From Algiphilus sp. (GTDB lineage Bacteria > Pseudomonadota > Gammaproteobacteria > Nevskiales > Nevskiaceae): 64,000 nt of DNA. A model generated the notes under the pieces. The model made no database searches and was not told the origin of the DNA. It saw only the letters and a program-made list of their open reading frames with translations. The stretch is from positions 26,717-90,716 of the forward strand of contig NZ_JAGLEJ010000002.1 of assembly GCF_023145115.1 (NCBI RefSeq). The letters run 5' to 3'. Shown piece by piece: positions 3,138 to 59,240 of this stretch. Position 1 is the stretch's first letter. Every line of letters starts with the position of its first letter. The position numbers were made by a program, and so were the translations under genes.

Positions 3138-3168
3138 CGCGTCGGTCTCGTTTCCGATGTTCGAAAAA

Positions 3169-3192
3169 GGGCGGCACTGCCGCCCTTTTTTT
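3169..3192 (+). terminator. Rho-independent terminator / attenuator after the acidic-tail gene
   Basis: GGGCGGC-ACT-GCCGCCC stem-loop followed by TTTTTTT. Confidence 0.75.
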
Positions 3193-3222
3193 GATTCCGG
3201 CGCCCGTTCCGTGAACCCGGCC

Positions 3223-4023
3223 ATGAAACCGGGGCGTACGTCCAGTCCGCGTCCCGTCGCGCGGCTCGCGCTGGGGCTGACGGTCATGCTGGCGTGCGGC
3301 AACGCGGTCGCTTCGGCATGCGACGGCGCGGTCCTGCAGTCACACTTCGCCTCCGGTGCCGTGCACCTCGTCGGTGCGGTTGCCGAGCCGGGTGCGGTAG
3401 TGCCCGACAATGGTGCGCGCGCCAGCGACGTGATCGCGCAGGCGGGCGGGCTGGTCGAAGGCGCATTTCCGCTCGGTGCGGTGCTGCTGCGACCGTCTGC
3501 CGGCATGGCCGCCGGTGCCGGGCGTGGCATGGCGCAGGCATCCACGGCCACCCAGATCGCGATGGGGGCGTCCGGGTCGGATGCGATCCTCGACGCAGCG
3601 CGCGACGCCCTGGCGGCGGATGGCTGCCTGATGCGGGTGCCGGTGGCTGTCGACGCCGTCACGCGCATGCGCGACCCCGACGCCGACGCCGTCCTGCAGG
3701 GCGGCGATATCGTGTTCGTGCCGTATCGCGCCGGCAGCGTGGCGGTTGTCGGTGCGGTCGCCGAGCCCGGGTTGGTCGATTTCGAGCCGGGTGCCACGGT
3801 GGCTGCCTATATCGAGCAGGCCGGTGGCTGGGCGAGCGGCGCGCATCGCGGCGAGGTGACGGTGTATCTGCCGCAGGGCAGCGCGCGCCCGCTGCACCCG
3901 AATCCGTGGCACTACCAGCCCGAGAATGTCCCGCCCGGATCGGTGATCCGCGTTCCCGGTGACGGAGCGCCGTCGCCCGGCGTGATCCCGGCGGGCGCGT
4001 CGGCGCACGGCGCAGAAGACTGA
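3223..4023 (+). CDS. GfcC/YjbG-like capsule biosynthesis periplasmic protein
   Basis: Signal/lipobox-like N-terminus (LALGLTVMLACGNAVASAC). Two repeats of a soluble-ligand-binding beta-grasp-like motif (VHLVGAVAEPGAVVPDNGARASDVIAQAGG and VAVVGAVAEPGLVDFEPGATVAAYIEQAGG). Lies immediately upstream of YjbH- and YjbF-like genes. Confidence 0.55.
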   Translation: MKPGRTSSPRPVARLALGLTVMLACGNAVASACDGAVLQSHFASGAVHLVGAVAEPGAVVPDNGARASDVIAQAGGLVEGAFPLGAVLLRPSAGMAAGAGRGMAQASTATQIAMGASGSDAILDAARDALAADGCLMRVPVAVDAVTRMRDPDADAVLQGGDIVFVPYRAGSVAVVGAVAEPGLVDFEPGATVAAYIEQAGGWASGAHRGEVTVYLPQGSARPLHPNPWHYQPENVPPGSVIRVPGDGAPSPGVIPAGASAHGAED

Positions 4024-6251: not shown

Positions 6252-7003
6252 CGGTACAGCGTCTTCTCGTCCTTGCCGCGGCCCTCGCGCTCGGCGCCTG
6301 CGGTGTCTCCACGCCGGTCAGGGATCTAGAGCGCGCGGTCGAGACCACGCCGCGCGAGCGCGATGCCGAAGCCGTCTCGACCACGCTCGAGGCCATACCC
6401 CTGCCGTACTCGCAGATGGCCGTGAGCATCGACGGCGGGCCGCCCGGCCGCATGGCCCTCGCCCGGATCGTGGACGGTGTTCAGGAATGGGTCGCCTTCG
6501 ACGGTCGGACCCTGTGGCTGAGGGGCGGACGCGTCGTCGGCACCGAGGGCTTCCGGACCGATCTGCTGCGCGCCGTCGATGTGCTGCCGCCGGTCGAGCC
6601 GGTGCCGGTTGCCCGCGGAACCACCTCGCAGCGCAGCGGCGCCATCTACGCGGAAGGTGCCGATCGCCGGCTCGGCGGCATCTACACGCTGACGCTGGCG
6701 CGCGAGGGGGGCACGCGGCCGGTCCTCATGGGCAAGGACATCGTGGACCTGGTGCAGGTGACCGAGCGCGTGTCGCGCGGGGACGAGGCCATCGCCGAGA
6801 ACCGGTACTGGGTCGATCCCGCCTCCGGCACGGTGGAGATATCGCGCCAGCGCATTGCGGGAACGCGGCACACCGTCATCATGCAGCGCCTCTATCCGGA
6901 CTACGAGAAGGCCCTGCGCGAGCGCCGCCGGCGCAGCCGGGAGGGCGCGGCGCCGGTCGCCGACGATGCCGCCGAGGCGCCGGTGGCCGCGGAGCAGGAC
7001 TGA
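6248..7003 (+). CDS. YjbF/GfcB family lipoprotein
   Basis: Lipobox LALGAC, about 250 aa. ATGA overlap with yjbH-like. Family assignment rests on size, lipoprotein signal and operon context. Confidence 0.65.
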   Translation: MTVQRLLVLAAALALGACGVSTPVRDLERAVETTPRERDAEAVSTTLEAIPLPYSQMAVSIDGGPPGRMALARIVDGVQEWVAFDGRTLWLRGGRVVGTEGFRTDLLRAVDVLPPVEPVPVARGTTSQRSGAIYAEGADRRLGGIYTLTLAREGGTRPVLMGKDIVDLVQVTERVSRGDEAIAENRYWVDPASGTVEISRQRIAGTRHTVIMQRLYPDYEKALRERRRRSREGAAPVADDAAEAPVAAEQD

Positions 7004-11724: not shown

Positions 11725-12849
11725 GTGCATTCGATGTCGATCAATTACAGCTGGGCCCTGGAGCGGTTCAAGCGGAAGCAGTTTCCCGAGATCGTGTCCA
11801 CCGGGGGCGCATTCCTGGAAGATCACAGCGGGCGCATTGCCGCGTCGGACGAGCTCATCAAGCTGGGTGACATCACTCTGCGGGCTGCGCTCATGCTCGG
11901 TGATCGCGCCCGAACCGATCGCTTGCTCGATGTGTGCGGCAACCTGGGAGCGCTGTCGCACTTCCGGGCAGCGACCGACCTTCAGGACGGAGACATCGAG
12001 GCGGCATGGTTCAGCCTCGCCAACGCCACGCCCTACAACCCCGACCACCACGGATTCTGGTCCCTGGGCCTCAATAGCGTGGTGCGCAACCCCGACTGGC
12101 TGCGCTACGCAGAGCGCGGATGCACCTTCCGGTCGCCAGCAACGGAAGCCGTCGTTGGCGGTGCCCGGTCATCGCCACGATATGCCGTGGTGTTCTCGTC
12201 GGATTCGGGCTACTTCAAGCGATTCTTCGAGCAGGGCATCGCGAGCCTCCGGCGGAACTGCTCGCACTTCCGAGCCTACTACTACGTCATCGAGCCCGAC
12301 GAGGAGTGTGTGCGCCTGATGCACATGCATGCCGCGGAGGACGTCGAGTTCCTGATCGATGCAGAGCCCCAGAGGCGGGGCGACAAGTCCTACTTCGCGA
12401 CGACGCGATTCTTCGCCGCGGACAGGGTGGTCAGGGAAACGGGACTGCCGGCCTTCATCTTCGATATCGACTCGTGCGTTCTGGCGGATCTCGCGACCCT
12501 GCTCTCGTCCGTGGAATGGCCTCGGGGGAAGACGGTCTGTCGCTTCATGGGGGGATTGGCGTTGCCGTGGCACAAGATCGTCGCGAATGCCATGTACGTT
12601 CCGCCAACTCGCGAGGGGCGTCAGTATCTGGAGGCCGTCTGTGCATACCTCCGCCACGTCTACAGCCGCTCATCCCGCGAGCGCTTGTGGTGGCTCGACC
12701 AGAACGCACTCTACTTCGCCTTTCTTGCGCGACAGCAAGGCGATTTCGCGAACTTCCCGGGGTGGGCAATGAACCGATACGTGCACTATCCAAGGATGTT
12801 CGAGGACAAGGACAAGGTGATGGCCGGTCGAAAGGGGGGCGCGGGGTAG
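11725..12849 (+). CDS. Hypothetical protein, possible GT-A-fold glycosyltransferase
   Basis: 374 aa in visibly lower-GC DNA than its neighbours. C-terminal half has RYAVVFSSDSGYFKRF ... LPAFIFDIDSCVLADL (DxD-like). No family recognised with certainty. The start may be the ATG at 11734. Confidence 0.5.
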   Translation: MHSMSINYSWALERFKRKQFPEIVSTGGAFLEDHSGRIAASDELIKLGDITLRAALMLGDRARTDRLLDVCGNLGALSHFRAATDLQDGDIEAAWFSLANATPYNPDHHGFWSLGLNSVVRNPDWLRYAERGCTFRSPATEAVVGGARSSPRYAVVFSSDSGYFKRFFEQGIASLRRNCSHFRAYYYVIEPDEECVRLMHMHAAEDVEFLIDAEPQRRGDKSYFATTRFFAADRVVRETGLPAFIFDIDSCVLADLATLLSSVEWPRGKTVCRFMGGLALPWHKIVANAMYVPPTREGRQYLEAVCAYLRHVYSRSSRERLWWLDQNALYFAFLARQQGDFANFPGWAMNRYVHYPRMFEDKDKVMAGRKGGAG

Positions 12850-12857: not shown

Positions 12858-15800
12858 TCAGGTGGTCTCTCGCGCGACCGCACGCCAGTCATTGCGCACG
12901 AACATGGATCGAAAGGCATCCCTGTCGCTGCTCCGCAACGTGCTCGTCGCCTGCTGGAGGAAGTGATAGAGCTTGGCATGCGGGGTGTAGATGATGCGCT
13001 TGCCGGCAATGCGGCGGACCGCTTCGCAGTACAGGCGATCGGAGCGATAGTGCGGTGCGTTCTCGTGATCGAGCGGGCCGAGAGTGTCCAGGGTTGCCCT
13101 CGGGATGTAGACACAGAAGAAGGGAGCGAAGCTCAGCTCGATATAGCCCGCGGGTCCGGATAGCGGCCGGAGCACATTGTCGTGGTGGGCGGAGAGGTTG
13201 ACCTCGATTTCGCGTTCCGGGTCGCAGGCGGGGCTGTGCGTACGGGTGGTCTTGGTGCCGGCGAGCAGCGTCTGACGCGACACCACCAGGCCCGCATCCG
13301 GCACATCTTCCAGGACGCGCTGCATGGCGCCGTCCCAGCCCGGGCAGACAACCGCATCGTTGTTGAGCAGTACGATGTCACTGTCGGCTGCGGCCGATTC
13401 AATGCCCTGGTTGACGGCATAGGTGAAGCCGTAGTTGCGCTCGTTGAGGATGACGCGGATATCGGGGTCATCCGCAATGCGCGACAGGTAGCTGCGTACT
13501 GGCTGCGAGGAGGCGTTGTCGACCACGATCAGACGGTATGGCGCTTCGGTGAAGGCGCGGACCGATTCGATGCAGAGCTGCAGGTGCTCCGGGCACTCGA
13601 AACTGGGGATGACGATCCCGAGCGGACGCCGTATCCGCGGAACGGGCCGGTGCTCCGGCGCGAACATCGCTTCCAGCCCCGGCACGCGGTGTCCCGGCAG
13701 CGCGTGCGCCAGCGGCTCGCGCGCGAGCGTTGCGCTTAGCGCCGCATTCTCGTCGAGCGATGACGCCGCCTCGGCAGCCGGGTCCCTGCCCTGGCGCTCG
13801 CTCAGCAGGCACGGCACCGCGACGCCGGCACTGGATGCGGAAATCGCCAGCAGGAAGGCCTGCCCGGACAGGTGGTCGAGGTCGGTGTCGAATCCGCCCG
13901 AAGACTCGGCTGCCGCACGTCGGCAGAGAACGCTGCCCAGGTCGATGTAGTCGCGATTCTCAAGCATTGCGCGCGCGAACATCGCGAAGGTTATGGCGTC
14001 GGGCTCCGTGTCCCCGGACGCGATGTCGAATCGGGTGCTCTGCGCGCTGTAGGCGAAGGGCGCTTCGGGCGCCTCCTGCAGCGTATCGAGCAGAATGGTG
14101 ATCGCGTGCGGCATCGGCCGGTGGTGGGGCTCCAGCCACATCAGATGGTCTCCGCCGGCCTTCGCCATTCCGGCGTTGCGCGCCGCCGCGATCCCGGGTT
14201 CGGTGACGGGGACGGTGCGCACGCGCGCGTCCTGCAGGGCCTCGCGCAGGCCTTCGACCTCGGCTCCGCCGACGAGCAGGAGCTCGATATTGTCGTGGCT
14301 CTGGGCGAGCACGCTCCGCGCCGCTTCGCCCGCCGCCTGGATCTCTTCTGCGTCGCAGTGGAGGATCACCGACACGCGGTCGTCGAGATTCCGCGAGGCC
14401 GCGCGCGCGCGACGATGGCGTTCGACCGCGTGCATGTGCCCGATTACGCGCTTTGCTTCCTCGGAGAACGGTGCGCGCAATGGTGGCAGGAACAGTGAGC
14501 GGCGCTCGAAGCTCTCGTAGTCGGTGAAGCCCGGCCCCTCGGGATCGGTTGAAGCCGGTGGGGGCGTTGGCGGGGGCGCCGGAGCCGGGGTAGGAGCCGA
14601 CTCAGTCGAGGGGGTGGGGGGCGTGATGTCCGCGAACTTGCGGCGGATGGCCGCTTCGTTGTCGGCCAGCGATTGCGTCAGCGTTATGTTGGAAAGGCCC
14701 TCAGCGATGTAGTACGCACACATCGCGTACGGATTGAATACCGGCTCGTGCTGGTGGGTGTAGCGGAGGATGAGGTCCCAGTCGACCAGTCGCGTCAGCG
14801 ACTCGTCGAAGCCGCCCAGCGCCTCGTAGACTTCGCGGTGGTGGGAAAAGACGTTGAGATCGATGTAGTTGCGCGCCAGCAAGCGGGACCAGTCGAAGGG
14901 TAGATGGCGGATGAACTCGCGACCCCCCACCTCGTCATGGACATGCACGCACGCGTACGCGGTGCGCCTCTCCGGATGTCGCGCGTATCCGGCCGCGGTC
15001 ATTAGCAGATAGTCCGGGTGCCAGGTGTTGTCGGAATCCAGCCACGCAATCCATGGTCCCTCGGCCGCGCGCAATCCGGCATTGCGTGCAGCACAGACAC
15101 CGCCATGCGGCAGTGCGAGGTAACGCAGTCGCCCGCGCGCGAACTCGTCGGCATAGCGTTCCCTCACGTATTCGGCAGTGCCGTCGGTGCTGCCGTCGTC
15201 GCAGATGATCAACTCCCAGTCGGGGTAGGACTGCGCGATCACCGAATCGATGGCCTTGTCGATGACGTCACGCCGGTTCCACGTCGGCATGATGATGCTG
15301 AACCGGCCCACGGGCGCTTTCTCCAGCGCGGTGCGAGCCTCGGTCGCGCGCTCGGGAGTGACCATGAGCGCGCGCGCCTGTTCGGAACGGGGGTCGATCT
15401 TGTCCTGCACCGGCGCCGGCACGGGGCGCACGGACGCAGTCGTGCCGGTGGTCGGCCGCGTTCCGAGTCGTCCTTCATCGCGCCCGACGAGCAGATAGTG
15501 CCAGAGTGCCGGTACGCCGGCGCGCTCGATTTCCGGATAGCGCTTGCGGTACCAGGCCAGGTCGAAGCGAGCACTCGGTGAGCGGCTCTCGGCCTGACCA
15601 TGGTGCAGGTAGTGACGCAGCGGATCCACGCCGGCGCGAGCAACGTCGCGGTAGCGGGTGAGGTACCAGTGCGGATCGAAGTGCGGTCCGGGCGCGCGCA
15701 TCTCGTCCGGCCCGTGCTCCAGGTAGTGGAACAGCGGGTTGAGCCCGGCCTCCGCGACGTCGGGATACTGCTCCAGATACCAGCTCGGATCGAAGAGCGG

Positions 15801-17417
15801 ATTGGGCTCGCGCCCCTCGCGCCAGCCCACGGCCAGCCAGTGCCACAACGGGTGGGCGCCATCCAGCGCGATGTCCGGATAGCGCAGCAGATACCACTCG
15901 GCATCGAACAAGCCGGTCCCGCGCAGCATGCGGGCCTGGCGCATCAGGCGGGCGTGCTCGCGCGGGCCGGTGGCGGCGCCGAACAGACGCAGCGGTGGCA
16001 CGCTGCGCGGGATGTGGACGGGTGTCTCGTCGGGGCGCAGGGCCCGCCGCCACCGCGCTGCCTTCCAGGGGGGCGGCTGCCACTGCAGGCGATGGAGGCG
16101 GCGAAGGGTGGCGAGGCGCTGCGAGAGCGCCCCCAGATTGCGCCGTCGCTCGGCGGTGAGGGCGGCTTCGTGTGTCGCGATCCGGTCACGCTGCTGTCGA
16201 TGTTCCGCCTCGAGCCGGTCGATGCGCTGCTTCTGCCACGCAATGCCACGCTTGAGCTCGTTCGTCCGCTCCCGGTGCCAGCGCACACCCTGCTCGAATC
16301 GGTCGCGCTCGGTGACGGCTTCACGATGGGCATCCTGCAGCGCCTCGATGCGGGATGCCTGCTCACGGATGCGCTCGTCGCGTTCACGGAGCGCGCTGGC
16401 CTGTTCCTCGGTCGTGGCTCGCTGTTGCTGCAGGGCCTCGGCCGCTTCGCGATGCTTCTCCTCCTTGCTCGTGGCCTTGGCATGCGCGGACCGCCGCGCC
16501 GCGACCTCTTCGCCGAACAACGGCCCCAGCGCCTCGGAGGCGCGATCGAGCTCGGTCCGGAGGGTATCGAGCCGGTCGACCGATTCCGGATTCTCGGGTT
16601 GCCGGCAGAGAATGGTGAGCGCCTCGGTCGCTTCCCGCACCCAGCGGGAGACGGTGGGGTCGGTGAAGAAGGCGTCAGTATCCACTGCATGATGACGCAG
16701 CCGACTGACCAGGAAGTCGTCCAGTGCATCCGCGGCATCCGATTCCGCGCGCGGATAGCGGATCGCCAGGCGCTCACTGATGGCGCTGGTGACACTGCGC
16801 CAGTCGTCCAGCAGGTCGGTATAGGCCACGAACACGCGCGGCCGCCCCCGGGTCGCATGCTCGGCATCGAGCACATGCCGCAGCCACAGGATGTGTCCCT
16901 TGGGCAGAGCGAAACCGTTGCGCTGCTGCAGCGACGCTGCTACCTCGGCGGGGCTGCGCAGCGGGATGATGGCTCGCGCGTCGGCACCGAAGCGTTCGAT
17001 GACCTCTTGCCAGAACGGCACCATGCGACAGATGCGCGGGTCCTTGAGAACGAAGAGCGCGGTGTTCGTGAAGTCGCGCTGTAGCAGCGCCACGGCTTCA
17101 TTGAGCAGACTTTCGCGTATTTCCGGGTCCAGCCGAGTCGTATCCAGTGGTCGCCAATCGTCCCAGTGCGATCCGAATGCATCTAGGACGCGGTCGTTCA
17201 GACGCTGGATATCGACGGACTCCCAGAATCCTGCCTCGTTCGCCGGACGCGCAGCCATGAGGTTGTCCGGCAACGCCGCGCCGAGAAGGCTCATCGCGCG
17301 GGTCAGGGCGGAGGTTCCGCTCCGGTGCATCCCGAGCACGAGCAACGCGGTGCCGCGCTCGGCGCCGGATGCCGCCGTGGGGTGCCGCTGCATGGGGTCT
17401 GTGGTCTCGCTGTCCAT
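12858..17417 (-). CDS. 1519-aa multidomain enzyme: sulfotransferase, coiled coil, 4 WY/HYL repeats, GT2, Pro-rich linker, degenerate GT2-like, GT2
   Basis: Sulfotransferase motifs GMHRSGTSAL (5'-PSB-like) and LRSPAEVAASL (3'-PB-like) at aa 29-165. Heptad-rich Arg/Glu/Gln region at aa ~285-445. Four ~38-aa repeats at aa 500-650. FSIIMPTWNRRDVIDKAIDSVIAQSYPDWELIICDDGSTDGT...AWLDSDN (GT2). TPPTPSTESAPTPAPAPPPTPPPAS linker. VSVILHCD...WLEPHH (GT2-like with DxD lost). LGIVIPSFECPEHL...LIVVDNASS...LLNNDAVV (GT2). Start taken at ATG 17417 (alternative 17393); the first 160 aa of the track ORF look non-coding. Confidence 0.85.
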   Translation of the reverse strand: MDSETTDPMQRHPTAASGAERGTALLVLGMHRSGTSALTRAMSLLGAALPDNLMAARPANEAGFWESVDIQRLNDRVLDAFGSHWDDWRPLDTTRLDPEIRESLLNEAVALLQRDFTNTALFVLKDPRICRMVPFWQEVIERFGADARAIIPLRSPAEVAASLQQRNGFALPKGHILWLRHVLDAEHATRGRPRVFVAYTDLLDDWRSVTSAISERLAIRYPRAESDAADALDDFLVSRLRHHAVDTDAFFTDPTVSRWVREATEALTILCRQPENPESVDRLDTLRTELDRASEALGPLFGEEVAARRSAHAKATSKEEKHREAAEALQQQRATTEEQASALRERDERIREQASRIEALQDAHREAVTERDRFEQGVRWHRERTNELKRGIAWQKQRIDRLEAEHRQQRDRIATHEAALTAERRRNLGALSQRLATLRRLHRLQWQPPPWKAARWRRALRPDETPVHIPRSVPPLRLFGAATGPREHARLMRQARMLRGTGLFDAEWYLLRYPDIALDGAHPLWHWLAVGWREGREPNPLFDPSWYLEQYPDVAEAGLNPLFHYLEHGPDEMRAPGPHFDPHWYLTRYRDVARAGVDPLRHYLHHGQAESRSPSARFDLAWYRKRYPEIERAGVPALWHYLLVGRDEGRLGTRPTTGTTASVRPVPAPVQDKIDPRSEQARALMVTPERATEARTALEKAPVGRFSIIMPTWNRRDVIDKAIDSVIAQSYPDWELIICDDGSTDGTAEYVRERYADEFARGRLRYLALPHGGVCAARNAGLRAAEGPWIAWLDSDNTWHPDYLLMTAAGYARHPERRTAYACVHVHDEVGGREFIRHLPFDWSRLLARNYIDLNVFSHHREVYEALGGFDESLTRLVDWDLILRYTHQHEPVFNPYAMCAYYIAEGLSNITLTQSLADNEAAIRRKFADITPPTPSTESAPTPAPAPPPTPPPASTDPEGPGFTDYESFERRSLFLPPLRAPFSEEAKRVIGHMHAVERHRRARAASRNLDDRVSVILHCDAEEIQAAGEAARSVLAQSHDNIELLLVGGAEVEGLREALQDARVRTVPVTEPGIAAARNAGMAKAGGDHLMWLEPHHRPMPHAITILLDTLQEAPEAPFAYSAQSTRFDIASGDTEPDAITFAMFARAMLENRDYIDLGSVLCRRAAAESSGGFDTDLDHLSGQAFLLAISASSAGVAVPCLLSERQGRDPAAEAASSLDENAALSATLAREPLAHALPGHRVPGLEAMFAPEHRPVPRIRRPLGIVIPSFECPEHLQLCIESVRAFTEAPYRLIVVDNASSQPVRSYLSRIADDPDIRVILNERNYGFTYAVNQGIESAAADSDIVLLNNDAVVCPGWDGAMQRVLEDVPDAGLVVSRQTLLAGTKTTRTHSPACDPEREIEVNLSAHHDNVLRPLSGPAGYIELSFAPFFCVYIPRATLDTLGPLDHENAPHYRSDRLYCEAVRRIAGKRIIYTPHAKLYHFLQQATSTLRSSDRDAFRSMFVRNDWRAVARETT
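15468..15920 (-). repeat. Protein-level tandem repeats (4 x ~38 aa): LFDxxWYLxxYPDVxxAGxxPLxHYLxxGxxEGRxPxP
   Basis: GLFDAEWYLLRYPDIALDGAHPLWHWLAVGWREGREPNP / LFDPSWYLEQYPDVAEAGLNPLFHYLEHGPDEMRAPGP / HFDPHWYLTRYRDVARAGVDPLRHYLHHGQAESRSPSA / RFDLAWYRKRYPEIERAGVPALWHYLLVGRDEGR. Confidence 0.85.
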
Positions 17418-18276
17418 CAGTGGAATTATGGCTGGATCAGGCAACGCGGCATGACGCCCGATGCCATTGCGTCGCGTTTCGCCGTTGCGACAGCTCGCCC
17501 ACGGTGCGCAGCTATGCGGCACACGCTTAGCGAAAGCGGTTGCGTACGATAGCAATGCAGTGCCTGCAAGCGGATCTTGCCGCCGGTGTGCGCCACGGCT
17601 GGCATGCTCCGGTCCGCGCGGTCTGCGGGACTCTCCGCGGGCAAGGCGGCAGCCGGATGCTGCGCAGTTGCTCGCGCACGCATGCAGCACGGTACGGTGG
17701 GTGTCTGGCGGCACGGCGGTTCTCCCCGTGTCGCGGGGTCGGGCCGCGGCACAGACGCGATCGCCCGATTCACAACGGGCGGGCCCGCGTTCCGGTGCGA
17801 GTGCGACAGCGCGTAAGACCTTGTGATTGCGAGGAATCCTGTCAGGCCGGTCGGACGCGGCCGGGAGGGTGTTGTGGCGCGGGGAAGGAGCGCGCATGCG
17901 CGCGAGCCCGAGCGAGGGGGCGGTGGAGGGCGCTTCTGCCGAGGCACGCCGGTTGTCGGGTGGACGGCTCCGATGATCCGGCTGCGCTTCACCGTGTTAC
18001 GGTGACGGGGAGTGCGGTTGATTCCAAGTCACCGAGTTGCAAAGCAACTTCGGCCGCCGGTCGAAAACGTGAACTTGGTCGCATGTCCCCGATATTGGGG
18101 CTTGCTCAACCGCATCTACTTCGGCATGCTTCGCCGAACCTCAGCGCGGGGTTGCGCGTGCGCTGGAGGTTGATCACGAGTTCGGGGGAATCACCTGAGT
18201 GCAAGCAAACAGTCGTCAGCACGTTGGGACGAACCCGGCTTCAGAAAGTTGTTCTCTTGTACAAGGAGATTTTGGG

Positions 18277-19902
18277 ATGAAAACGCTTGCAAGCATGACC
18301 CGGGTACTCGGGCTGTCTGCAGCGGCTGCGGCGGCATTCGCCATCCAGCCGGTTGCGGCACAGACGGTATCCAACAACGGTCAGGGCAGTGCGGTCGTCG
18401 TGCCGTACTACACCATCAACAACGGTTGGGCCACGCTGGTCAACCTGACCAACACCACCGATAACTCGATCGTCGTCAAGTTCCGTCTGCACGAGGCTCG
18501 TAACTCGCGCGACGTGCTCGACTTCAACATCGCGCTCAGCCCGTACGACGTGTGGTCGGCCTTCGTGACCGAGGGTCCGGGCAACGCCCCGCGCCTGGTC
18601 ACCGAGGACCGTTCCTGCACGATCCCGGACATCCGTGCCACCGGTGCGTCGGCCAGCAACATCGCCTACTCGGGCGAGTTCGTCGACTTCAGCGGCAGCA
18701 ACGGCGACAACACCCGCATGCACGAGGGCTACATCGAAGTCCTCACGATGGGCGAGTCCGAGGACATCGTCGAGCCGGCCGGCAGCGCGCGCGGCAACAC
18801 CGCGTACTACGCCGAGCACGAGAACGGCGAGCCGCGCGACTGCGCCCGCGTCGTGGCCGACTTTGCCAACCGTGGCGCCGACTGGGGCACCGGTATTGGT
18901 GACACCATCCCGGGTCAGGACGCCGGTGCGGTGCAGACCGGCTCCGGCAGCCCGCTGGCCCGCCTGGGTTCGGTTGACGGTGCCGGCGCCAACGAGAGCA
19001 CCGTCGGCTATGGTGAGATCGTTTCCGAGACGCCCATCAAGGTGAACGTCAGCTACGTCAACTCCGGCAACGGCATTGCCGCTGCGGCCGACTCGCTGCA
19101 CATCGCTGGCTGGGGTCTGGGCCAGAACCTGGTCACCGCGCAGGAGTTCCCGTGGTTCCTCGAGCCGGCGCTGGCTTCGTCGGACGGTCTCTGGACCACC
19201 GACGCGCTTCCGGCCATCGGTCAGGGCATCGCATCGAGCCAGGTCAAGAACGAGTGGACCAGCAACCCGAGCACCGGTGCTTCTTCGGACTGGACCATCA
19301 CCTTCCCGACCAAGCGCTTCGACGCTGACGAGGACGCCGGCAACATCCAGGCTGCCTGCAACGTTTGGCGCAACGACGGCAGTGCTGCCGGCGTGCCGAA
19401 CGGCACTGCCGGTGCCGTCTGGAGCGGCTGGGGCGCTGGTGGCCCGACCTCGCTGGCCAGTGCTGACTGCCCGGACGAGGGCTTCCCGAACGTCTTCCAG
19501 GACGGCAACGAGGGCAATGCCCCGATCGTCGTCCGCTACGATATCTACGATCGTGAGGAAGGCGGTGTTCAGGTGACGGTCGACGGCCCGGTCATTTCGC
19601 CGGCCCCGCCGCCCGAGATCACCATCGAGAACATCCCGTTCGAGGTCAACGTTCTGAAGATCGCCGAGGACGCCGCCAACACCCCGTCCGCGCTCGACTC
19701 GCAGATCGCGCTGGCCATCGACACGGCGCAGCTCGCTTCGGGTGACCCGAACGGCTGGCTGCAGACGACCTTCCTTGACGGCGTCGGCGGTTCCGAGGTG
19801 TTCTACCCGGTCACCGGCTTCATCTTCAAGAAGCGCGACTTCGGCAACCCGGCCCTGAACTTCGGTCAGGCCACCGAGCACGCCTACACGCGTCAGCCGT
19901 AA
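18277..19902 (+). CDS. Secreted 541-aa protein of unknown family, apparently highly expressed (candidate major surface / S-layer-like protein)
   Basis: AAGGAG Shine-Dalgarno 8 nt before ATG 18277. Signal peptide MKTLASMTRVLGLSAAAAAAFAIQPVAAQ. Codon usage differs from neighbours (CGT, GGT, GCT, AAC, TTC enriched). No TM segment; 4 Cys; Gly/Asn/Thr/Ser-rich. A strong terminator follows. Confidence 0.8.
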   Translation: MKTLASMTRVLGLSAAAAAAFAIQPVAAQTVSNNGQGSAVVVPYYTINNGWATLVNLTNTTDNSIVVKFRLHEARNSRDVLDFNIALSPYDVWSAFVTEGPGNAPRLVTEDRSCTIPDIRATGASASNIAYSGEFVDFSGSNGDNTRMHEGYIEVLTMGESEDIVEPAGSARGNTAYYAEHENGEPRDCARVVADFANRGADWGTGIGDTIPGQDAGAVQTGSGSPLARLGSVDGAGANESTVGYGEIVSETPIKVNVSYVNSGNGIAAAADSLHIAGWGLGQNLVTAQEFPWFLEPALASSDGLWTTDALPAIGQGIASSQVKNEWTSNPSTGASSDWTITFPTKRFDADEDAGNIQAACNVWRNDGSAAGVPNGTAGAVWSGWGAGGPTSLASADCPDEGFPNVFQDGNEGNAPIVVRYDIYDREEGGVQVTVDGPVISPAPPPEITIENIPFEVNVLKIAEDAANTPSALDSQIALAIDTAQLASGDPNGWLQTTFLDGVGGSEVFYPVTGFIFKKRDFGNPALNFGQATEHAYTRQP

Positions 19903-19960: not shown

Positions 19961-19992
19961 GGCCACCGCCCTTCGGGGCGGTGGCTTTTTTT
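19961..19992 (+). terminator. Rho-independent terminator
   Basis: GCCACCGCCC-TTCG-GGGCGGTGGC followed by TTTTTTT, 60 nt after the stop at 19902. Confidence 0.85.
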
Positions 19993-20053
19993 GTGCGCGC
20001 ATGGATGCCTTAGAATCCTGCGCGTCTGAATCCCCGAATGGAGTTGTGCCGCG

Positions 20054-21061
20054 ATGATCGATCGCCGCTTTTTCCCCGTGCTGCTTTCCGTGCTCCTCGC
20101 CGCCTGTTCGCCCGAAACCGAGGCACCTTCAGGCGGTGCCGATCCGCTGGCCAGTGGGTCGGGAGTGGCCGTGACCGCAGACGATCTCGAGACCGAGCTG
20201 GCGCTCATGAGCGATCAGGAGCGTGCCAAGGCACTGGGTTCGGCCAAGGCGCTGCAGAGCGCGATTACCAGCGTCTTCTATCGGCGCCGGATGGAGGACA
20301 TCGCATCCGAGCGCGGTTATCTCGACGATCCGACGTTGCAGCAGCGCATCGCCCGGAATCGGGAGATGATCATCGCCAACGCGGTGCCCGAGATGTATCT
20401 CGCCGAACTCGAGCAGCCGGACTTCGAGGCGCGAGCCCGGGAGTACTACGAAGCGAATTCGGAGGAGTTCCGTCCCCCCGAGCGCATCGCCGCCTCGCAC
20501 ATCTTCTGGCAGGCGCCCAGCGACGACGATAAGAAGCGGGTGCGCGAGGAGGCAGAGTCGGTGCTCGAGCAGCTCCGCAATGGCGCGGAGTTCGGCGCAC
20601 TAGCCACCGAGCATTCACAGGACGGCTCGCGTTACGCGCGCGGCGAGCTGGGTACCTTCAAGCGGGGTGACATGGCCCCCGGATTCGAGGAAGCCGCCTT
20701 CGCGTTGAAGGAGGCGGGCGACATCAGCGGGATCGTGGAAAGCCGTTTCGGTCTGCACATCATCAAGCTGGACAAGCGCTATCCGAATGCGGTGCCGCCT
20801 TTCGAGGAGGTCCGGGGGCGCATCGTCCAGCGACTGCGGAACGAGTTCCGACACGAGAAGGTATCCGCCTGGCTGAAGGACAAGGTACCGAGTTCGGAAA
20901 CCGCCGTGGCCGAGCCGGAGCTATCAGCCGCGCTGGAGCGCATGCGCGAGCGGTACGGCGCACCGGAGCGGGATGAGAGCGCTGGAGGGAAGGCCGCGTC
21001 GAGTTCGGTGGCTCCCGGCGAGCCGGTTTCGCCGGATGAGGGCGAAGACCTGGCCCGGTAG
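20054..21061 (+). CDS. Parvulin-type peptidyl-prolyl cis-trans isomerase lipoprotein (PpiC/EpsD-like)
   Basis: Lipobox LLAACS. Rotamase domain ASHIFWQAP...FGALATEHSQDGSRYARGELGTFKRGDMAPGFEEAAFALKEAGDISGIVESRFGLHIIKLDKR. Confidence 0.8.
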   Translation: MIDRRFFPVLLSVLLAACSPETEAPSGGADPLASGSGVAVTADDLETELALMSDQERAKALGSAKALQSAITSVFYRRRMEDIASERGYLDDPTLQQRIARNREMIIANAVPEMYLAELEQPDFEARAREYYEANSEEFRPPERIAASHIFWQAPSDDDKKRVREEAESVLEQLRNGAEFGALATEHSQDGSRYARGELGTFKRGDMAPGFEEAAFALKEAGDISGIVESRFGLHIIKLDKRYPNAVPPFEEVRGRIVQRLRNEFRHEKVSAWLKDKVPSSETAVAEPELSAALERMRERYGAPERDESAGGKAASSSVAPGEPVSPDEGEDLAR

Positions 21062-21069: not shown

Positions 21070-21795
21070 ATGCTGCGCTTCCTCGGCATCGGCGCCCAGA
21101 AGGCCGGGACCACCTGGCTGTACGAGCGCTTGCGCCGGCATCCGGAGGTGGGCTTCCCGATCGGCAAGGAAGGGCATTACTGGGATCGTGTCAATCCCGA
21201 GGGCAGCCATGACAGCTATATGGCGCGCTTTGCCGATCCGGAGCGGGCGGAAGGCGAGATCACGCCAGCGTACGGATTTCTACCACCGGCCTCTATAGCG
21301 CGTCTGCATTCGCTGGCTCCGGACGTGCGGTTGATCTTCCTCATGCGCAATCCGGTGGAGCGCGCCTGGTCGTCGGCCCTGATGGCGCTGGGGCGCGCGG
21401 AGATGCGCTACGAGGAAGCCAGCGCGGCATGGTTCCTGGACCACTTTCGTTCGAGTGGATCGCTGGCGCGCGGTGATTACGCGGCATGCATTGCCAACTG
21501 GCGTGCGGCGTTTCCGCCCGAACAGCTGCTTCTGTTGCGCCACGAGGAGGTCGCGCGTGATCCGCACGCCGTGCTGCGTCGCTGCTGCGCGCACATCGGT
21601 ATCGCGGCGCCGGATCCGGCGATGCTCGAAGGCAGCGACGATCGCGTTTTCTCCGGACCGCGCCACGCGCTTCCCGGGGACCTGCGCGCAGCCCTGGTGG
21701 CACTGTATCGTCCACGGATCGCGGCGCTGGAGGCCCTGCTGGGCGAATCCTTCGAGCACTGGCTGGAAATGGACGCTGCTGACCATCCCGAATAG
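21070..21795 (+). CDS. Sulfotransferase (carbohydrate-sulfotransferase-like PAPS motifs)
   Basis: FLGIGAQKAGTTWLYERL (5'-PSB, compare the K-x-G-T-T motif of heparan-sulfate sulfotransferases) and LIFLMRNPVERAWSS (3'-PB R-x-P-x-x-R-x-x-S). 241 aa. Confidence 0.8.
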   Translation: MLRFLGIGAQKAGTTWLYERLRRHPEVGFPIGKEGHYWDRVNPEGSHDSYMARFADPERAEGEITPAYGFLPPASIARLHSLAPDVRLIFLMRNPVERAWSSALMALGRAEMRYEEASAAWFLDHFRSSGSLARGDYAACIANWRAAFPPEQLLLLRHEEVARDPHAVLRRCCAHIGIAAPDPAMLEGSDDRVFSGPRHALPGDLRAALVALYRPRIAALEALLGESFEHWLEMDAADHPE

Positions 21796-26261: not shown

Positions 26262-27089
26262 ATGAGCGACCACGATCAGTCCGATGCCGAATGGCGCCCC
26301 CCGTCCTCGGCCGGCGGTTCGCGCAACAGCCTGCAGGTCTTCGTCACCTCGCTCGGTGCCTTCGTGCTGCGCGAGCTCAAGAACCAGTTCGGGCGCTCGC
26401 GTCTCGGCTACTTCTGGGCGATCGCCGAGCCGGCGGCGGTGGTGGCCATCCTGACCACCCTGCACGCCTTCGTGCGCGGCGAACGTGCGCTGGTCTACGG
26501 AGAGAGTCCGGTGGTCTTCTTCGTGTTCGGCGCCGTGCCCTATTTCCTGTTCATGAACGTCGCGCAGAGCGCGCAGGGCGTCTGCACCGGGCACAAGGGG
26601 CTGTTCAATTACCGGCAGATCAAGCCCATCGACATCATCCTGGCACGCGGTCTCATCGAAGCGGTGATGATGGCGGCGGTGGGGGCGTTGTTCCTGTTCG
26701 GCTGGTGGTGGATGGGCTTCGAGTTGAAGATCGACGACCCGCTCGAGCTGGTCGTCTCGCTGTCCGCCCTGTTCCTGCTGGGCTTCGGCCTCGGCCTGTG
26801 CTTCGAGGTGTTCGGGACCATCTTCCAGGACATGAAGCGCATCTTCGGCATCGTCATGCGGCCGATGTTCTTCATCTCGGGGCTGTTCTTCACCATCGAC
26901 ATGATCCCGGTCGAGTACCGCGGGCTGTTGATCTGGAATCCGGTGCTGCATGCAGTGGACTTCACGCGCGATGCCGTCCTGGTCGGGTACAGCTCGCCGG
27001 GGAGCGTGGCCTACCTGGTGCTGTCCATCGGCATCCTGCTCTTCGTCGGGCTGGCGGCGTACCGTCGCTATCTCTTCCAGCTCATCTGA
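26262..27089 (+). CDS. kpsM: ABC-2 type polysaccharide export permease (KpsM/Wzm-like)
   Basis: 275 aa, 6 predicted TM segments. LRELKNQFGRSRLGYFWAIAEPAAVVAIL is the typical KpsM/CtrC N-terminal motif. Directly upstream of the ATPase. Confidence 0.85.
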   Translation: MSDHDQSDAEWRPPSSAGGSRNSLQVFVTSLGAFVLRELKNQFGRSRLGYFWAIAEPAAVVAILTTLHAFVRGERALVYGESPVVFFVFGAVPYFLFMNVAQSAQGVCTGHKGLFNYRQIKPIDIILARGLIEAVMMAAVGALFLFGWWWMGFELKIDDPLELVVSLSALFLLGFGLGLCFEVFGTIFQDMKRIFGIVMRPMFFISGLFFTIDMIPVEYRGLLIWNPVLHAVDFTRDAVLVGYSSPGSVAYLVLSIGILLFVGLAAYRRYLFQLI

Positions 27090-27096
27090 GACGATC

Positions 27097-27768
27097 GTGA
27101 TTCGCGTCTCCAATATCACCAAGTCCTATCCGATCCAGGGCTTCGCGCGCTACACCGTATTGCGCGATCTGAGCCTGGAGCTGCCGTCACGCACGCCGGT
27201 AGGCATCGTCGGCCGCAACGGGGCCGGCAAGAGCACGCTGCTGCGGCTGCTCGGCGGGATCGAGCTGCCCGACCGTGGCCGGGTCGAGGCGGACGGCCGC
27301 ATTTCGCCTCCGCTGGGTCTGACCAGCGGGTTCGCGCAGCGCATCTCGGGGCGCGACAATGCCCGCTTCGTGTCGCGGATCAATGGCGACGACCGCGCGA
27401 CCCAGCGCGAGCGCGTTGCCTACATCCACGCCTTCTCCGAACTAGGTGACTTCTTCGAGCGGCCGGTGGAGACCTATTCCTCCGGCATGCGGGCGCGGCT
27501 GGCGTTCTCGATCAGCATGTCCTTCGAGTTCGACTACTACCTGATCGACGAGCTCACCGCGGTGGGCGACCAGAAATTCCGCGCCAAGGCGCAGAAGACC
27601 TTCGAGGAGAAGAAGGGCCGGTCCAGCGTCATCATGGTCAGCCACAATCTGGGCCAGCTCAAGCGCGACTGCACCGTGGGCGTCTACCTGCGCGCCGGCG
27701 AGGCCGTCTACTACGACGATATCGAGGCGGCGATCGCCGCCTACAACGAGGATGTACAGCATTCATGA
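27097..27768 (+). CDS. kpsT: Polysaccharide export ABC ATPase (KpsT-like, no C-terminal carbohydrate-binding extension)
   Basis: GTG 27097. Walker A GRNGAGKST, signature YSSGMRARLAF, Walker B YYLIDE. Only ~223 aa. Confidence 0.9.
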   Translation: MIRVSNITKSYPIQGFARYTVLRDLSLELPSRTPVGIVGRNGAGKSTLLRLLGGIELPDRGRVEADGRISPPLGLTSGFAQRISGRDNARFVSRINGDDRATQRERVAYIHAFSELGDFFERPVETYSSGMRARLAFSISMSFEFDYYLIDELTAVGDQKFRAKAQKTFEEKKGRSSVIMVSHNLGQLKRDCTVGVYLRAGEAVYYDDIEAAIAAYNEDVQHS

Positions 27769-28868
27769 AGGTGGATCCGCCCTGGAAGGCGAACAAGCTG
27801 CTGCGATACGTGGGCGTTGTGCTCGCGCCGACCCTGCTGGTGCTGCTCTATCAGGCGCTGATCGCGTCGGACGGCTACATAAGTGATGCGCAGGTCATGG
27901 TCGAGCATGAAACACCGATGCCGGCCCCCGAACTGGCCATCGGCAACCTCCTGGGCAGTACGCCCACCAAGACCGATGCGCTGGTGGTGAAGACCTTCAT
28001 GGAGTCGCGCGCGATGCTGGAACACCTCGAGGAGACGCTCGATCTGCGCGCGCACTTCAGATCGAAGGACATCGACCCCTGGAACCGCCTGGCGCCGGAC
28101 GCGACACGCGAGGAAGTGCTGGCCTACTACCTCGATCATCTCGAGGTGACCGTCGATCAGGAGTCCTACATCCTCAACATCGCGTTCGTTGCCTACGATC
28201 CGGCCTTTGCGCAGCAGGTCACCCAGGAACTCGTGGCGCGCAGCGAGAGCTTCGTCAACAACATCAGCCAGCATCTGGCGCGCGAACAGATGCAGTTCGT
28301 GCAGGGCGAGGTGGAGCGCGCGCACGGCGAGCTCAAGAAGGCCTCGCGCGAGATGGTGGATCTGCAGCAGCAGTACGAAGTGCTCAGCCCCGAATCGGAA
28401 TCGGAAGCCGCCGGCACCATCCTGGCCGGTCTGCTGCAGGAGCTGGCGAAGCAGCGGACGCAGCTCAAGGCACTGACCAGCTATCTCAATTCCGGCGCTT
28501 CGGAGGTCGTGCAGACGCGCCAGAAGATCGCCGCGCTGGAGGAGCAGATCGCGCAGGAGCGCGCCAAGCTGGTCGGGGACGAGGGCTACGAAGGCCTCAA
28601 CGAGCTCATGCTCGCCTATCAGGACGCCGAGGTGAATCTCAAGGTGGCCACGGAGGTCTATCAGTCGGCGATCGGAACGCTCGAGACCACCCGCCTGGAG
28701 ACTGCGCGCAAGGCCAAGTATCTGGTATCGGTATCGGCGCCGGGGCTGCCCGACGAGGCCGAGCACCCGCGCATCCTCTACTGGACGGGCACCGTCTTCG
28801 TCTTCCTCAATCTCGCCTACTTCGTGCTCGGACTGATCATCGCCACGGTCCGCGATCACCGGGAGTGA
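27765..28868 (+). CDS. kpsE: Capsule export inner-membrane adaptor (KpsE/CtrB, PCP-3-like)
   Basis: N-terminal TM LRYVGVVLAPTLLVLLYQALIASDGYISDAQVMVE, a long coiled periplasmic region and a C-terminal TM WTGTVFVFLNLAYFVLGLIIATV. ATGA overlap with kpsT. Confidence 0.8.
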   Translation: MKVDPPWKANKLLRYVGVVLAPTLLVLLYQALIASDGYISDAQVMVEHETPMPAPELAIGNLLGSTPTKTDALVVKTFMESRAMLEHLEETLDLRAHFRSKDIDPWNRLAPDATREEVLAYYLDHLEVTVDQESYILNIAFVAYDPAFAQQVTQELVARSESFVNNISQHLAREQMQFVQGEVERAHGELKKASREMVDLQQQYEVLSPESESEAAGTILAGLLQELAKQRTQLKALTSYLNSGASEVVQTRQKIAALEEQIAQERAKLVGDEGYEGLNELMLAYQDAEVNLKVATEVYQSAIGTLETTRLETARKAKYLVSVSAPGLPDEAEHPRILYWTGTVFVFLNLAYFVLGLIIATVRDHRE

Positions 28869-30580
28869 CCATCATGCGACGCCGTTTCATCGCCACCCTG
28901 GCCGTGCTGCTGCTGCCCGCGGCGCTGCCCGCGCAGCAACTGCCCATGTTCGAGCCGGACGCCGAGTCGCTGATGCCGACCACGCCGCAGGTGTCGCAGT
29001 CCGGGGCGCGTCAGGTACAGCCCACCGACCCGCCGCCCAAGGAGCGGCCGAAGGACGACGATCTCCGCGAGGTGGAGACCGGTCCGGACGCCCCCTTCGG
29101 CGCCTACCTGTTCCGCGGTCGCTTCGCGCAGGAATCCTTCCGCGGCTTCAATCCGGATTACGTGATCGGCGTCGGCGATCGCATCAACATCAAGCTCTGG
29201 GGCGCCTTCGAGGCCACCCAGCAGCTCGAGGTCGATTCCCAGGGCAACATCTTCGTGCCGCGCGTCGGGCCCATCAGCGTGCAGAACGTGCGCAACGAGG
29301 ATCTCAACCGGGTCATCAACCAGCGCATCAAGAACGTCTACCGGGAGAACGTGGGGGTCTACGCTGCGCTGGCGGTGGCCGATCCGGTACGCGTCTTCGT
29401 CACCGGCAACGTCGAGGCCCCCGGCCTCTACGCGGCGCACGGCTCCGATTCGCTGCTGCACTTCCTCGACCGCGCCGGCGGCATTGCGCCCGACAGCGGC
29501 AGCTATCTGGACGTGCGCGTGCTGCGCAACGGCGAGGAGCGTGCGCAGGTCGATCTCTACGATTTCCTGCTGCGCGGCGAGCTGCCGCTCATCCAGTTCC
29601 GCGATGGCGACACCATTCTCGTCGAGCGTCGCCACTCCACCGCGACGGTCAGCGGCATGGTCGATCGCGAGGCACGCTTCGAGTTCAAGCAGTCGATTCC
29701 GCTGCCCGAGCTGCTGTCCTACGCGGGCGTGCAGGAGCGCGCCACCCACGTGCAGGTCATCCGCAACCAGACCCGGCAGCGCGAGGCCGAGGTGCTGGCG
29801 CTGGGCGGCGGGCTGGCGTCGGTCGACATCGTGTCCGGAGACGAAGTGCGCGTCTTCGAGGACCGGCGCATCGGCGCCATCACCGCGTCCGTCGAGGGCG
29901 AGTTCCAGGGCGTCAGCCAGTTCGTGCTGCCCTACGACAGCACCCTGCAGGATCTGCTCGACCGCATCGAGGTCACCGACCGCTCCAATCTCGCCGGTCT
30001 CCAGCTCTATCGCCAGAGCGTGGCCCAGCGCCAGAAGGAAGTGCTCGACCAGATGCTGCGCAAGCTCGAGGAGGCGGTGCTCAGCGCGCGCTCCGGCACA
30101 CGAGAGGAGGCCCAGCTCCGCGTGGCCGAGGCCGAGCTCATCAAGGAGTTCATCGAGCGCGCGTCCAAGGTCGAGCCCAAGGGACGCGTCGTGCTGCACA
30201 AGGGGTTCGATCCGGCCTCCATCGCCCTCGAAGACGGCGATGTCCTGCGTGTTCCGCGGCACAGCAACACCGTTGCGGTGCAGGGCGAGGTCTTCCTGCC
30301 GACCTCCTTCGTGCATCAGGAGGGCAAGCCCGTCGACTACTACCTCGAGCAGGCGGGCGGCCTGACCCAGGCCGGCGGCGGTGACAAGATCTTCGTGATG
30401 CGGGCCAACGGCGAGATCGCCGATGCCAAGAGCGGCCTCTTCACGCGGACCCGGGTGCGGCCCGGTGACGAGATCATGGTGCTGCCCACCGTGCAGCTGA
30501 AGACCTTCCAGTTCACCAAGGATCTCACCCAGGTGATGTCGCAGGTGGCGCTGACCGCGGGCGTGGTGCTAGGGATCTGA
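28865..30580 (+). CDS. kpsD: Polysaccharide export protein (KpsD/OPX family with SLBB domains)
   Basis: Signal peptide RRRFIATLAVLLLPAALPAQQ. YVIGVGDRINIKLWGAFEATQQLEVDSQGNIFVPRVGPISVQN (Poly_export motif) and several SLBB-like repeats (GDTILV, GDVLRVP, GDEIMVLP). The start could be ATG 28874. Confidence 0.8.
   Translation: MTIMRRRFIATLAVLLLPAALPAQQLPMFEPDAESLMPTTPQVSQSGARQVQPTDPPPKERPKDDDLREVETGPDAPFGAYLFRGRFAQESFRGFNPDYVIGVGDRINIKLWGAFEATQQLEVDSQGNIFVPRVGPISVQNVRNEDLNRVINQRIKNVYRENVGVYAALAVADPVRVFVTGNVEAPGLYAAHGSDSLLHFLDRAGGIAPDSGSYLDVRVLRNGEERAQVDLYDFLLRGELPLIQFRDGDTILVERRHSTATVSGMVDREARFEFKQSIPLPELLSYAGVQERATHVQVIRNQTRQREAEVLALGGGLASVDIVSGDEVRVFEDRRIGAITASVEGEFQGVSQFVLPYDSTLQDLLDRIEVTDRSNLAGLQLYRQSVAQRQKEVLDQMLRKLEEAVLSARSGTREEAQLRVAEAELIKEFIERASKVEPKGRVVLHKGFDPASIALEDGDVLRVPRHSNTVAVQGEVFLPTSFVHQEGKPVDYYLEQAGGLTQAGGGDKIFVMRANGEIADAKSGLFTRTRVRPGDEIMVLPTVQLKTFQFTKDLTQVMSQVALTAGVVLGI

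Positions 30581-57887: not shown

Positions 57888-59240
<1,353 letters not shown>

Follow-up and report, generated by a model that had tools for sequence, protein, structure and literature searches.

The 64,000-nucleotide stretch of Algiphilus sp. DNA analysed here (contig NZ_JAGLEJ010000002.1; the whole stretch is hereafter called the window) carries, within a polysaccharide locus, a gene at 18277..19902 on the + strand which begins with ATG, comprises 541 codons and ends in a TAA stop. Its product, the target protein, is identical to WP_290573912.1, a RefSeq "hypothetical protein [Algiphilus sp.]". We propose that it is almost certainly a divergent member of the NpdA family, which includes the surface layer (S-layer) proteins of Delftia sp. 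Cs1-4 and Paracidovorax citrulli. Based upon homology to verified NpdA proteins and upon a conserved gene neighbourhood, we further predict that it forms an S-layer in Algiphilus species, and put the probability of this at about 0.75. An initial annotation, made without database searches, had considered the family unrecognised and offered two guesses, an S-layer-like surface protein and a glycan-processing enzyme. NpdA homology supports the first of these, and for the second no enzyme family or fold was matched. The family does lack a model in Pfam and NCBIfam, but it is recognised in the literature, where it is named NpdA.

Assignment to the NpdA family

The target protein had no match at E≤1 in Pfam or NCBIfam and none below E 0.1 among the PDB sequences. 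Among 5.8 billion proteins searched, 257 relatives were found; those with a named source, from Algiphilus, Competibacteraceae, Thioalkalivibrio and Sinimarinibacterium, are all "hypothetical". A tblastn search of plasmids revealed a 510 amino acid "cell surface protein" of Comamonas odontotermitis (WP_224153019; 90% coverage, E 1e-19). At 90% identity this protein clusters with WP_184705622.1, one of the NpdA orthologues given in Supplementary File S1 of PMC10765051, and a search with the C. odontotermitis protein brings in "cell surface proteins" of Comamonas, Acidovorax and Paracidovorax which are NpdA according to the literature.

An alignment of 48 relatives from the clade of the target protein (A1) was compared, using hhalign, with an alignment of NpdA proteins from the Comamonadaceae (A2). 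The two match over 432 columns, nearly their full length, with a probability of 100% and an E-value of 2.7e-41. In BLASTP the target protein shows 34% identity to the NpdA of P. citrulli AAC00-1 (WP_011797163, Aave_4148) over the N-terminal 196 amino acids (E 4e-21), and 29% identity end to end (E 8e-38) to the Nitrosococcus halophilus orthologue given in PMC10765051. It is because of these hhalign and BLASTP results, and of the cluster that links it to the published orthologue set through WP_184705622.1, that we assign the protein to NpdA. The motifs VPYYT, VKVRF...N(S/T)R(D/E)VLDFN..LSP.DVW and DW(V/T)ITFPTKRF are common to the target protein and NpdA, as are (Y/W)(D/N)REE, ..SP.PP, E.NV and GLPV.GF. 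The beta-rich N-terminal motif singled out in the initial annotation turned out to be the most conserved signature of the family.

The function of NpdA has been established in two species. In Delftia sp. Cs1-4 the S-layer protein was identified as NpdA by knock-out, immunogold labelling and proteomics; disruption of npdA abolishes the S-layer and the nanopods, which are extensions of the S-layer, and NpdA is a dominant envelope protein of that strain (PMC3110197). In P. citrulli the same identification was made by deletion, proteomics and cryo-electron microscopy (cryo-EM), and an S-layer was visible in 15 of 16 further npdA-carrying cultures (PMC10765051). Orthologues have been reported from 62 betaproteobacterial and 49 gammaproteobacterial species (PMC10765051), and the N-terminal signals that they bear are comparable to that of the target protein (supplement of PMC10765051). 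The gene typically lies directly 3' of a cluster of about 12 gsp genes encoding a type II secretion system (T2SS). Since the same paper also reports lineages with partial gsp sets (PMC10765051), the adjacent gsp operon is a typical trait of NpdA and not a strictly defining one.

The family is very large. The A1 profile matches 3,675 clusters at 50% identity (E≤1e-3), 1,415 of them at E≤1e-30. In species-representative genomes it finds 519 loci or more, mainly gammaproteobacterial (Competibacteraceae, Chromatiaceae, Lysobacterales, Halieaceae and Wenzhouxiangella), with some from Betaproteobacteria. Ten long or divergent members were scanned with Pfam and yielded only DUF285 repeats, in two fusions; these DUF285 (BspA-like) fusions are 1,156 and 1,647 amino acids long (P0182, P0240 and P0151-P0156 are the long members noted). 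Members of about 950 amino acids match the A1 profile in several stretches, which suggests a tandem duplication of the NpdA fold.

Features and predicted structure of the target protein

The N-terminus, MKTLASMTRVLGLSAAAAAAFAIQPVAA|QTV, has a basic n-region, an Ala-rich h-region and a V-A-A cleavage motif; the 28 amino acid Sec signal peptide (18277..18360, +) is predicted, from reading of the sequence, to be cleaved at VAA/QT. The clean Sec signal described in the initial annotation is thus borne out, and so is its view that the protein lacks a transmembrane segment, a lipobox and a recognisable sorting tag, the C-terminus reading ...ATEHAYTRQP. A PEP-CTERM/exosortase substrate, suggested by the neighbouring peptidyl-prolyl isomerase (PPIase) gene, was considered and rejected: the C-terminus lacks a PEP motif, a transmembrane segment and a basic tail.

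The mature protein is acidic (pI ~4.2) and of ~54 kDa. Its computed composition (A 11.7, G 11.5, V 7.8, S 7.6, T 7.2, N 7.0 and D 6.8%) agrees with the richness in Gly, Asn, Thr, Ser and Asp noted previously, with Ala the most frequent residue. Taken with the expression signals given below, this mass, pI and richness in Ala, Gly, Thr, Ser, Asn and Asp would be typical of an S-layer protein. There are five N-x-S/T sequons, many Ser and Thr residues and, as had also been noted, four cysteines (114, 189, 361 and 398). In A1 Cys114 and Cys189 never vary, and their counterparts in NpdA are the likewise invariant Cys128 and Cys198, a conservation that fits a disulfide made before export by a T2SS.

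The AlphaFold2 model of the target protein is almost entirely beta (pLDDT 89.9, pTM 0.89), with residues 1–24 below a pLDDT of 50. The structural comparison proposed in the initial annotation was carried out with Foldseek and gave no match at E≤0.001 in PDB or BFVD and no enzyme family. The best PDB matches were galectin-like beta-sandwiches (E ~0.07, probability 0.57, TM 0.4 on the target) and the best BFVD match had an E-value of 0.012 and a probability of 0.06. We regard these as noise, or as a weak lead at most. Kinship to viral jelly-roll or capsid proteins was also considered and dropped.

Expression signals

The Shine-Dalgarno sequence AAGGAG (18263..18268, +) lies 8 nt 5' of the ATG, and is predicted to pair with the 3' end of the 16S rRNA at -8.5 kcal/mol. 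It had been described as the strongest in the window. Among the 31 gene starts compared it is indeed one of the strongest, but not uniquely so, as four others score -8.4 to -9.8 kcal/mol. Downstream, an intrinsic terminator (19961..19996, +) consists of a hairpin (19961–19986) with an 11-bp stem, 9 GC pairs and a 4-nt loop, followed by T7, and merits the term textbook terminator which it had been given.

Codon usage was compared with that of 31 other genes of the window and is distinct, as previously claimed: CGT, GGT and GCT are enriched, and GGG and CGG nearly absent. CGT makes up 0.37 of the Arg codons, against mostly 0.00–0.14 elsewhere (0.28–0.31 in two small genes), GGT 0.35 of the Gly codons, against mostly 0.06–0.20 with a maximum of 0.29, and GCT 0.17 of the Ala codons, against mostly 0.00–0.09 with a maximum of 0.14. 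The fractions of GGG, CGG and CCG within their families are 0.02, 0.05 and 0.94, respectively. Such a pattern would be expected of a strongly translated gene in a GC-rich proteobacterium, and from the codon bias, the Shine-Dalgarno sequence and the terminator high expression of the target gene is predicted. A consensus scan located no sigma-70-like promoter for it, alignment of the upstream regions of four Algiphilus loci showed no meaningful conservation of a promoter or 5' untranslated region, and no Rfam families were found in the window.

Gene neighbourhoods of npdA homologs

Eighty genome loci with npdA homologs were compared by tblastn, 65 of them informative upstream and 56 downstream. 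At 40 of the 65, a GspD secretin gene is found in the same orientation no more than 5 kb upstream. Downstream, a homolog of the PPIase occurs within 4 kb at 40 of the 56 (L007-L086 being among the loci), a Wzt-like ATPase within 9 kb at 33 and a family 2 glycosyltransferase (GT2) related to the giant synthase of the window, described below, at 29. Since the published description of NpdA mentions only the upstream gsp cluster, this module of PPIase, Wzm, Wzt and glycosyltransferases appears to be a conserved part of npdA loci that has not been described. On the Comamonas odontotermitis megaplasmid the order is rfb, gspE-gspD, a hypothetical gene, the gene for WP_224153019, a peptidylprolyl isomerase, ABC permease, ABC ATPase, methyltransferases and GT2. 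That of Chiayiivirga flava is gsp, npdA, a 426 amino acid unknown, PPIase, Wzm, Wzt with the glycan-binding domain Wzt_C, GT2, a 930 amino acid unknown and GT2.

In the clade of the target protein the module takes a particular form. A sulfotransferase gene directly 3' of npdA is typical of this clade, being found at loci of Algiphilus, Competibacteraceae, Chromatiaceae and Thioalkalivibrio. The Thioalkalivibrio homolog, at 52% identity the nearest relative linked to a T2SS, directly follows a complete gsp operon and precedes a PPIase, a sulfotransferase and a giant protein combining sulfotransferase and GT2 parts. Because of this arrangement, export by a T2SS is likely to be ancestral in the family and to be supplied from elsewhere in the genome that carries the target gene; no T2SS genes were found beside the npdA orthologues of Algiphilus or Competibacter. 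The layout of the window, including the Kps-type exporter set, recurs around the Algiphilus aromaticivorans orthologue. Homologs of the giant synthase adjoin npdA homologs at two loci, L001 and L004, the latter of Thioalkalivibrio, and on a JGI metagenome contig (L089).

The initial annotation had asked whether homologs ever lie beside polysaccharide genes, and in particular whether they co-occur with kps and sulfotransferase genes. Co-localisation with polysaccharide genes was seen repeatedly across loci, so that the refuting condition set in that annotation does not tell against an S-layer-like protein. Sulfotransferases accompany npdA in the clade of the target protein and Kps-type exporters in Algiphilus; most relatives have Wzm/Wzt.

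Several genomes carry more than one copy. In A. aromaticivorans one paralogue (P0002) lies in the glycan locus and a second, 44% identical orphan (P0047) adjoins DNA methylase, Mrr and integrase genes (L212, 456635–478230 of JPOG01000001.1); a single metagenome-assembled genome (MAG), MFD03804.bin.2.81, has four loci with npdA homologs (L016, L017, L019 and L033). Such paralogues may point to variation of the S-layer or be spare copies. A protein of about 610 amino acids with no Pfam match also recurs beside npdA homologs, in Thioalkalivibrio (L004, 13132–14964), another Algiphilus sp. (L213, 8007–9839) and many Lysobacterales loci (a further example being L082, 16979–19771). In Chiayiivirga it is part of the 930 amino acid reading frame, and it has no homolog in the window.

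Comparison with other S-layer systems

The target protein resembles the NpdA proteins of Delftia and P. citrulli in size class (~470–600 amino acids), Sec signal, all-beta architecture, conserved motifs and near full-length homology. Unlike typical npdA genes, the target gene is not adjoined by a gsp operon. Within its clade the flanking genes are those for sulfotransferases, to which Algiphilus adds an exporter of the Kps type.

In Aeromonas salmonicida, as far as the cluster rows of PMC4483657 describe it, vapA and its Sps/Aps type II secretion genes separate wzm from wzt within an ABC-transporter-dependent O-antigen cluster, and a sulfotransferase-domain gene and then the giant multidomain glycosyltransferase WbbB lie downstream of vapA-wzt. 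Compared by locus layout alone, and within what these rows give, VapA follows the same system logic as NpdA loci, a ~50-kDa Sec-dependent S-layer protein encoded after a dedicated T2SS operon. The order T2SS, npdA, PPIase, wzm/wzt, GT2 resembles that of Aeromonas, whereas the vapA cluster rows in PMC4483657 list no PPIase. The window has a polysaccharide cluster with an ABC exporter but, unlike Aeromonas, no dedicated T2SS, which is present in relatives. Because a sulfotransferase-domain gene also stands beside vapA-wzt in A. salmonicida, sulfate modification may, by analogy, recur in glycans that are paired with T2SS-exported S-layers. A published Aeromonas vapA PCR primer, run against metagenomes, gave 120 chance matches, none of them with the second primer.

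The S-layer protein RsaA of Caulobacter crescentus has no Sec signal and carries a C-terminal type I secretion signal with RTX repeats. The target protein differs from it in having a Sec signal and no RTX-type repeats, and its fold matched no PDB chain. According to work cited in PMC10765051, the RsaA layer is held non-covalently on a specific surface polysaccharide, the O-antigen, and its type I secretion genes are linked to the gene for RsaA itself. Slr4 of Pseudoalteromonas tunicata represents a further, widely distributed proteobacterial S-layer family encoded beside a T2SS cluster (PMC7821379), and is treated by the NpdA authors as distinct (PMC10765051).

The glycan locus of the window

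The target gene does lie among glycosyltransferases, sulfotransferases and an exporter, as the initial annotation described; the exporter resembles KpsM/T/E/D. The giant multidomain glycan synthase (12858..17897, -) is divergent from the target gene and contains three GT2 stretches (Pfam E 5e-64); its true start is probably near 17420. The N-terminal part has an HRSGTS motif and a weak Sulfotransfer_3 match (E 0.005, below the cut-off). It is followed by a charged E/R/Q-rich stretch of ~100 amino acids, which may form a coiled coil, four tandem ~35 amino acid repeats of the pattern "WYL..YPD...AG..PL.HYL..G..EGR" and the three GT2 domains. We take this layout to resemble the WbdD/WbbB-type terminator, molecular-ruler and polymerase enzymes of ABC-transporter-dependent O-antigen pathways.

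Directly downstream of the target gene is the PpiC/PrsA-like peptidyl-prolyl isomerase (20054..21061, +; Pfam Rotamase E 1e-23), which has the lipobox LLAAC. Against NCBIfam it gave only generic PrsA/PpiD/SurA-like matches below the cut-offs; an identity as an EpsD-type PPIase (TIGR02925) was rejected, as no EpsD-type model matched. Then comes a 241 amino acid sulfotransferase (21070..21795, +; Pfam Sulfotransfer_3 E 3e-17, Sulfotransfer_1 E 1e-12) with an N-terminal GAQKAGTTW motif, which is read as a predicted binding site for 3'-phosphoadenosine 5'-phosphosulfate (PAPS). Since it has no signal peptide, this enzyme is presumably cytoplasmic; it is presumably PAPS-dependent. More glycosyltransferases separate it from the KpsM/KpsT/KpsE/KpsD-like ABC-transporter-dependent polysaccharide exporter (26262..30580, +; Pfam ABC2_membrane, ABC_tran and Poly_export with SLBB), which includes an outer-membrane OPX protein. 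Of the window ORFs that were scanned, none was recognised as an oligosaccharyltransferase (OTase) or as O-antigen-ligase-like (Wzy_C/PglL). The open reading frame at 11725–12849, which has no Pfam match, was considered as an oligosaccharyltransferase and set aside, its sequence being unlike a polytopic membrane protein and not obviously that of such an enzyme.

Upstream of the target gene are rml genes, a WecA-like GT4 gene and yjbH and yjbF. The latter two (4053–7003, +), situated where the glycan region borders on other genes, encode homologs of outer-membrane and lipoprotein components of the Gfc/group-4-capsule type, and a second Algiphilus genome (L213) likewise has the pair beside this locus.

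Proposed mechanism and alternatives

From these data a route for the target protein can be proposed. The pre-protein would be made in large amounts and cross the inner membrane via Sec, whereupon the 28 amino acid signal peptide would be removed. In the periplasm it would fold into a compact, all-beta protein, probably with disulfides and probably aided by the lipoprotein PpiC/PrsA-like isomerase encoded directly downstream. The folded protein would cross the outer membrane by a T2SS encoded elsewhere in the genome and assemble into a paracrystalline coat tethered to the cell by surface polysaccharide. The best candidate for the tether is a glycan, probably sulfated, whose synthesis and export would fall to the GT2, sulfotransferase and KpsMTED-like genes around the target gene. 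We infer glycan tethering because, according to work by Engelhardt cited in PMC3110197, reassembly of the Delftia S-layer protein required lipopolysaccharide (LPS), because glycan export genes are linked to npdA, and because the A-layer of Aeromonas salmonicida offers a precedent. Direct sulfation of the target protein is unlikely and a (lipid-linked) glycan the likely substrate, as the sulfotransferase has no signal peptide and the target protein is Sec-exported.

A broader form of this proposal, which we regard as tentative and somewhat doubtful, is that the NpdA lattice of Algiphilus, Competibacteraceae, Thioalkalivibrio and Chromatiaceae is tethered to a sulfated polysaccharide or carries one, with the PrsA-like foldase as a conserved component. 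The glycan would then be built by the giant synthase, its sulfotransferase part, charged linker and triple GT2 acting as "terminator plus ruler plus polymerase", together with the small signal-less sulfotransferases.

Several observations weigh against a functioning S-layer of this kind. The identity of the target protein to verified NpdA proteins is only ~27–34%, and Algiphilus, Competibacteraceae and Thioalkalivibrio are absent from the published NpdA species tables (PMC10765051), with no mention of Algiphilus or Thioalkalivibrio found in the supplement of that paper. For Algiphilus and its clade the S-layer role is predicted from homology and context, and the high abundance of the target protein from sequence signals. 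No T2SS homologs occur anywhere in the 64-kb window, and as no T2SS operon is present there the export route is likewise one that we infer. The exporter is of the capsule type (KpsMTED-like with OPX), whereas most relatives have one of the Wzm/Wzt(+Wzt_C) O-polysaccharide type as a neighbour, and the anchoring of the target protein to the glycan of this particular locus is a guess. Finally, where a genome has several paralogues, not every copy need form a lattice.

The last point leads to an unlikely alternative, in which the target protein is an NpdA homolog that does not form the S-layer of the cell but is, for example, a secreted matrix or biofilm protein, part of the sheath of vesicles or "nanopods", or a spare or variant paralogue used conditionally. 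The paralogues of A. aromaticivorans (P0002 and P0047) and of the MAG with four loci are in keeping with this, as are the DUF285/BspA-like fusions and tandem duplications, which suggest use of the fold in other surface contexts, and the one of 16 additional npdA-carrying cultures in which cryo-EM revealed no S-layer (PMC10765051). However, the target copy, unlike the orphan, retains its PPIase, sulfotransferase and glycosyltransferase neighbourhood and has strong expression signals, and the nanopods of NpdA are themselves S-layer extensions (PMC3110197). A different question is whether the surrounding machinery glycosylates the target protein itself, giving an S-layer glycoprotein with a sulfated glycan and no separate anchoring polysaccharide. 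The tight and recurrent linkage of GT2, sulfotransferase and ABC-transporter genes to npdA homologs, together with the five sequons and many Ser and Thr residues, would accord with this, and precedents exist in the S-layer glycan clusters of Gram-positive bacteria, which use ABC-transporter-dependent assembly, and in the sulfated S-layer glycans of haloarchaea. We nevertheless consider it improbable, to much the same degree as the non-lattice role, given that the window ORFs scanned yielded no oligosaccharyltransferase or Wzy_C/PglL-like gene, that the OPX protein of the exporter suggests a free surface polysaccharide, and that the LPS requirement of the Delftia S-layer protein, as cited in PMC3110197, favours non-covalent anchoring.

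Least probable by far, and in our opinion barely tenable, is a secreted enzyme (lyase, hydrolase or sulfatase-like) that acts on the polysaccharide of the locus. The position of the gene would suit such an enzyme, and one beta-sandwich has the weak Foldseek likeness to galectin-type lectins mentioned above (E 0.07, probability 0.57). Against this, no catalytic family or fold was matched in Pfam, NCBIfam or PDB, the target protein is homologous to proven structural lattice proteins, and the codon bias suggests a structural protein made in bulk. The prediction of an S-layer protein is the one that we retain.

Other features of the window

The window is 69% GC. Two AT-rich near-palindromes were located, TAGTGGAATAACAATATATCAA at 49253–49276, between the divergent genes 47969–49252 and 49277–50011, and ATATTGATATACTGTCACC at ~51910–51931, before the gene starting at 51932. 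Both are possible operators, and between them sits a gene for a SulP sulfate permease (50019–51767). Long open reading frames with no Pfam match lie at 60451–63987 (-), 57651–58976 (-), 1233–2456 (+) and 2598–3797 (-), the longest encoding 1,178 amino acids; some of these may be spurious in such GC-rich sequence.

Significance

The NpdA family itself and its S-layer role are already known (PMC3110197, PMC10765051). New here are the unlisted lineages, the large extent of the family, the PPIase and glycan module that npdA loci conserve, the sulfotransferase linkage in one clade and a confidently predicted fold with no solved relative. A name and a function are thereby offered for a RefSeq "hypothetical" protein and for a very large family that has neither a model in Pfam or NCBIfam nor a solved structure. 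The reach of NpdA is extended to Algiphilus, a genus placed in the Nevskiales, to the Competibacteraceae, which are abundant in wastewater granules, to Thioalkalivibrio and to the purple sulfur bacteria. A confident AlphaFold model with no structural relatives makes the family worthwhile for structure determination.

Beyond the T2SS, npdA genes usually have a prolyl isomerase gene and the genes of an ABC-transporter-dependent glycan pathway as companions and, in the clade of the target protein, sulfotransferase genes as well. This linkage provides leads on the folding, export and tethering of Gram-negative S-layers. If the broader proposal made above is true, it would describe a sulfated-glycan-dependent S-layer system in Proteobacteria, and the PrsA-like periplasmic foldase would be a previously unnoticed component of the NpdA system.

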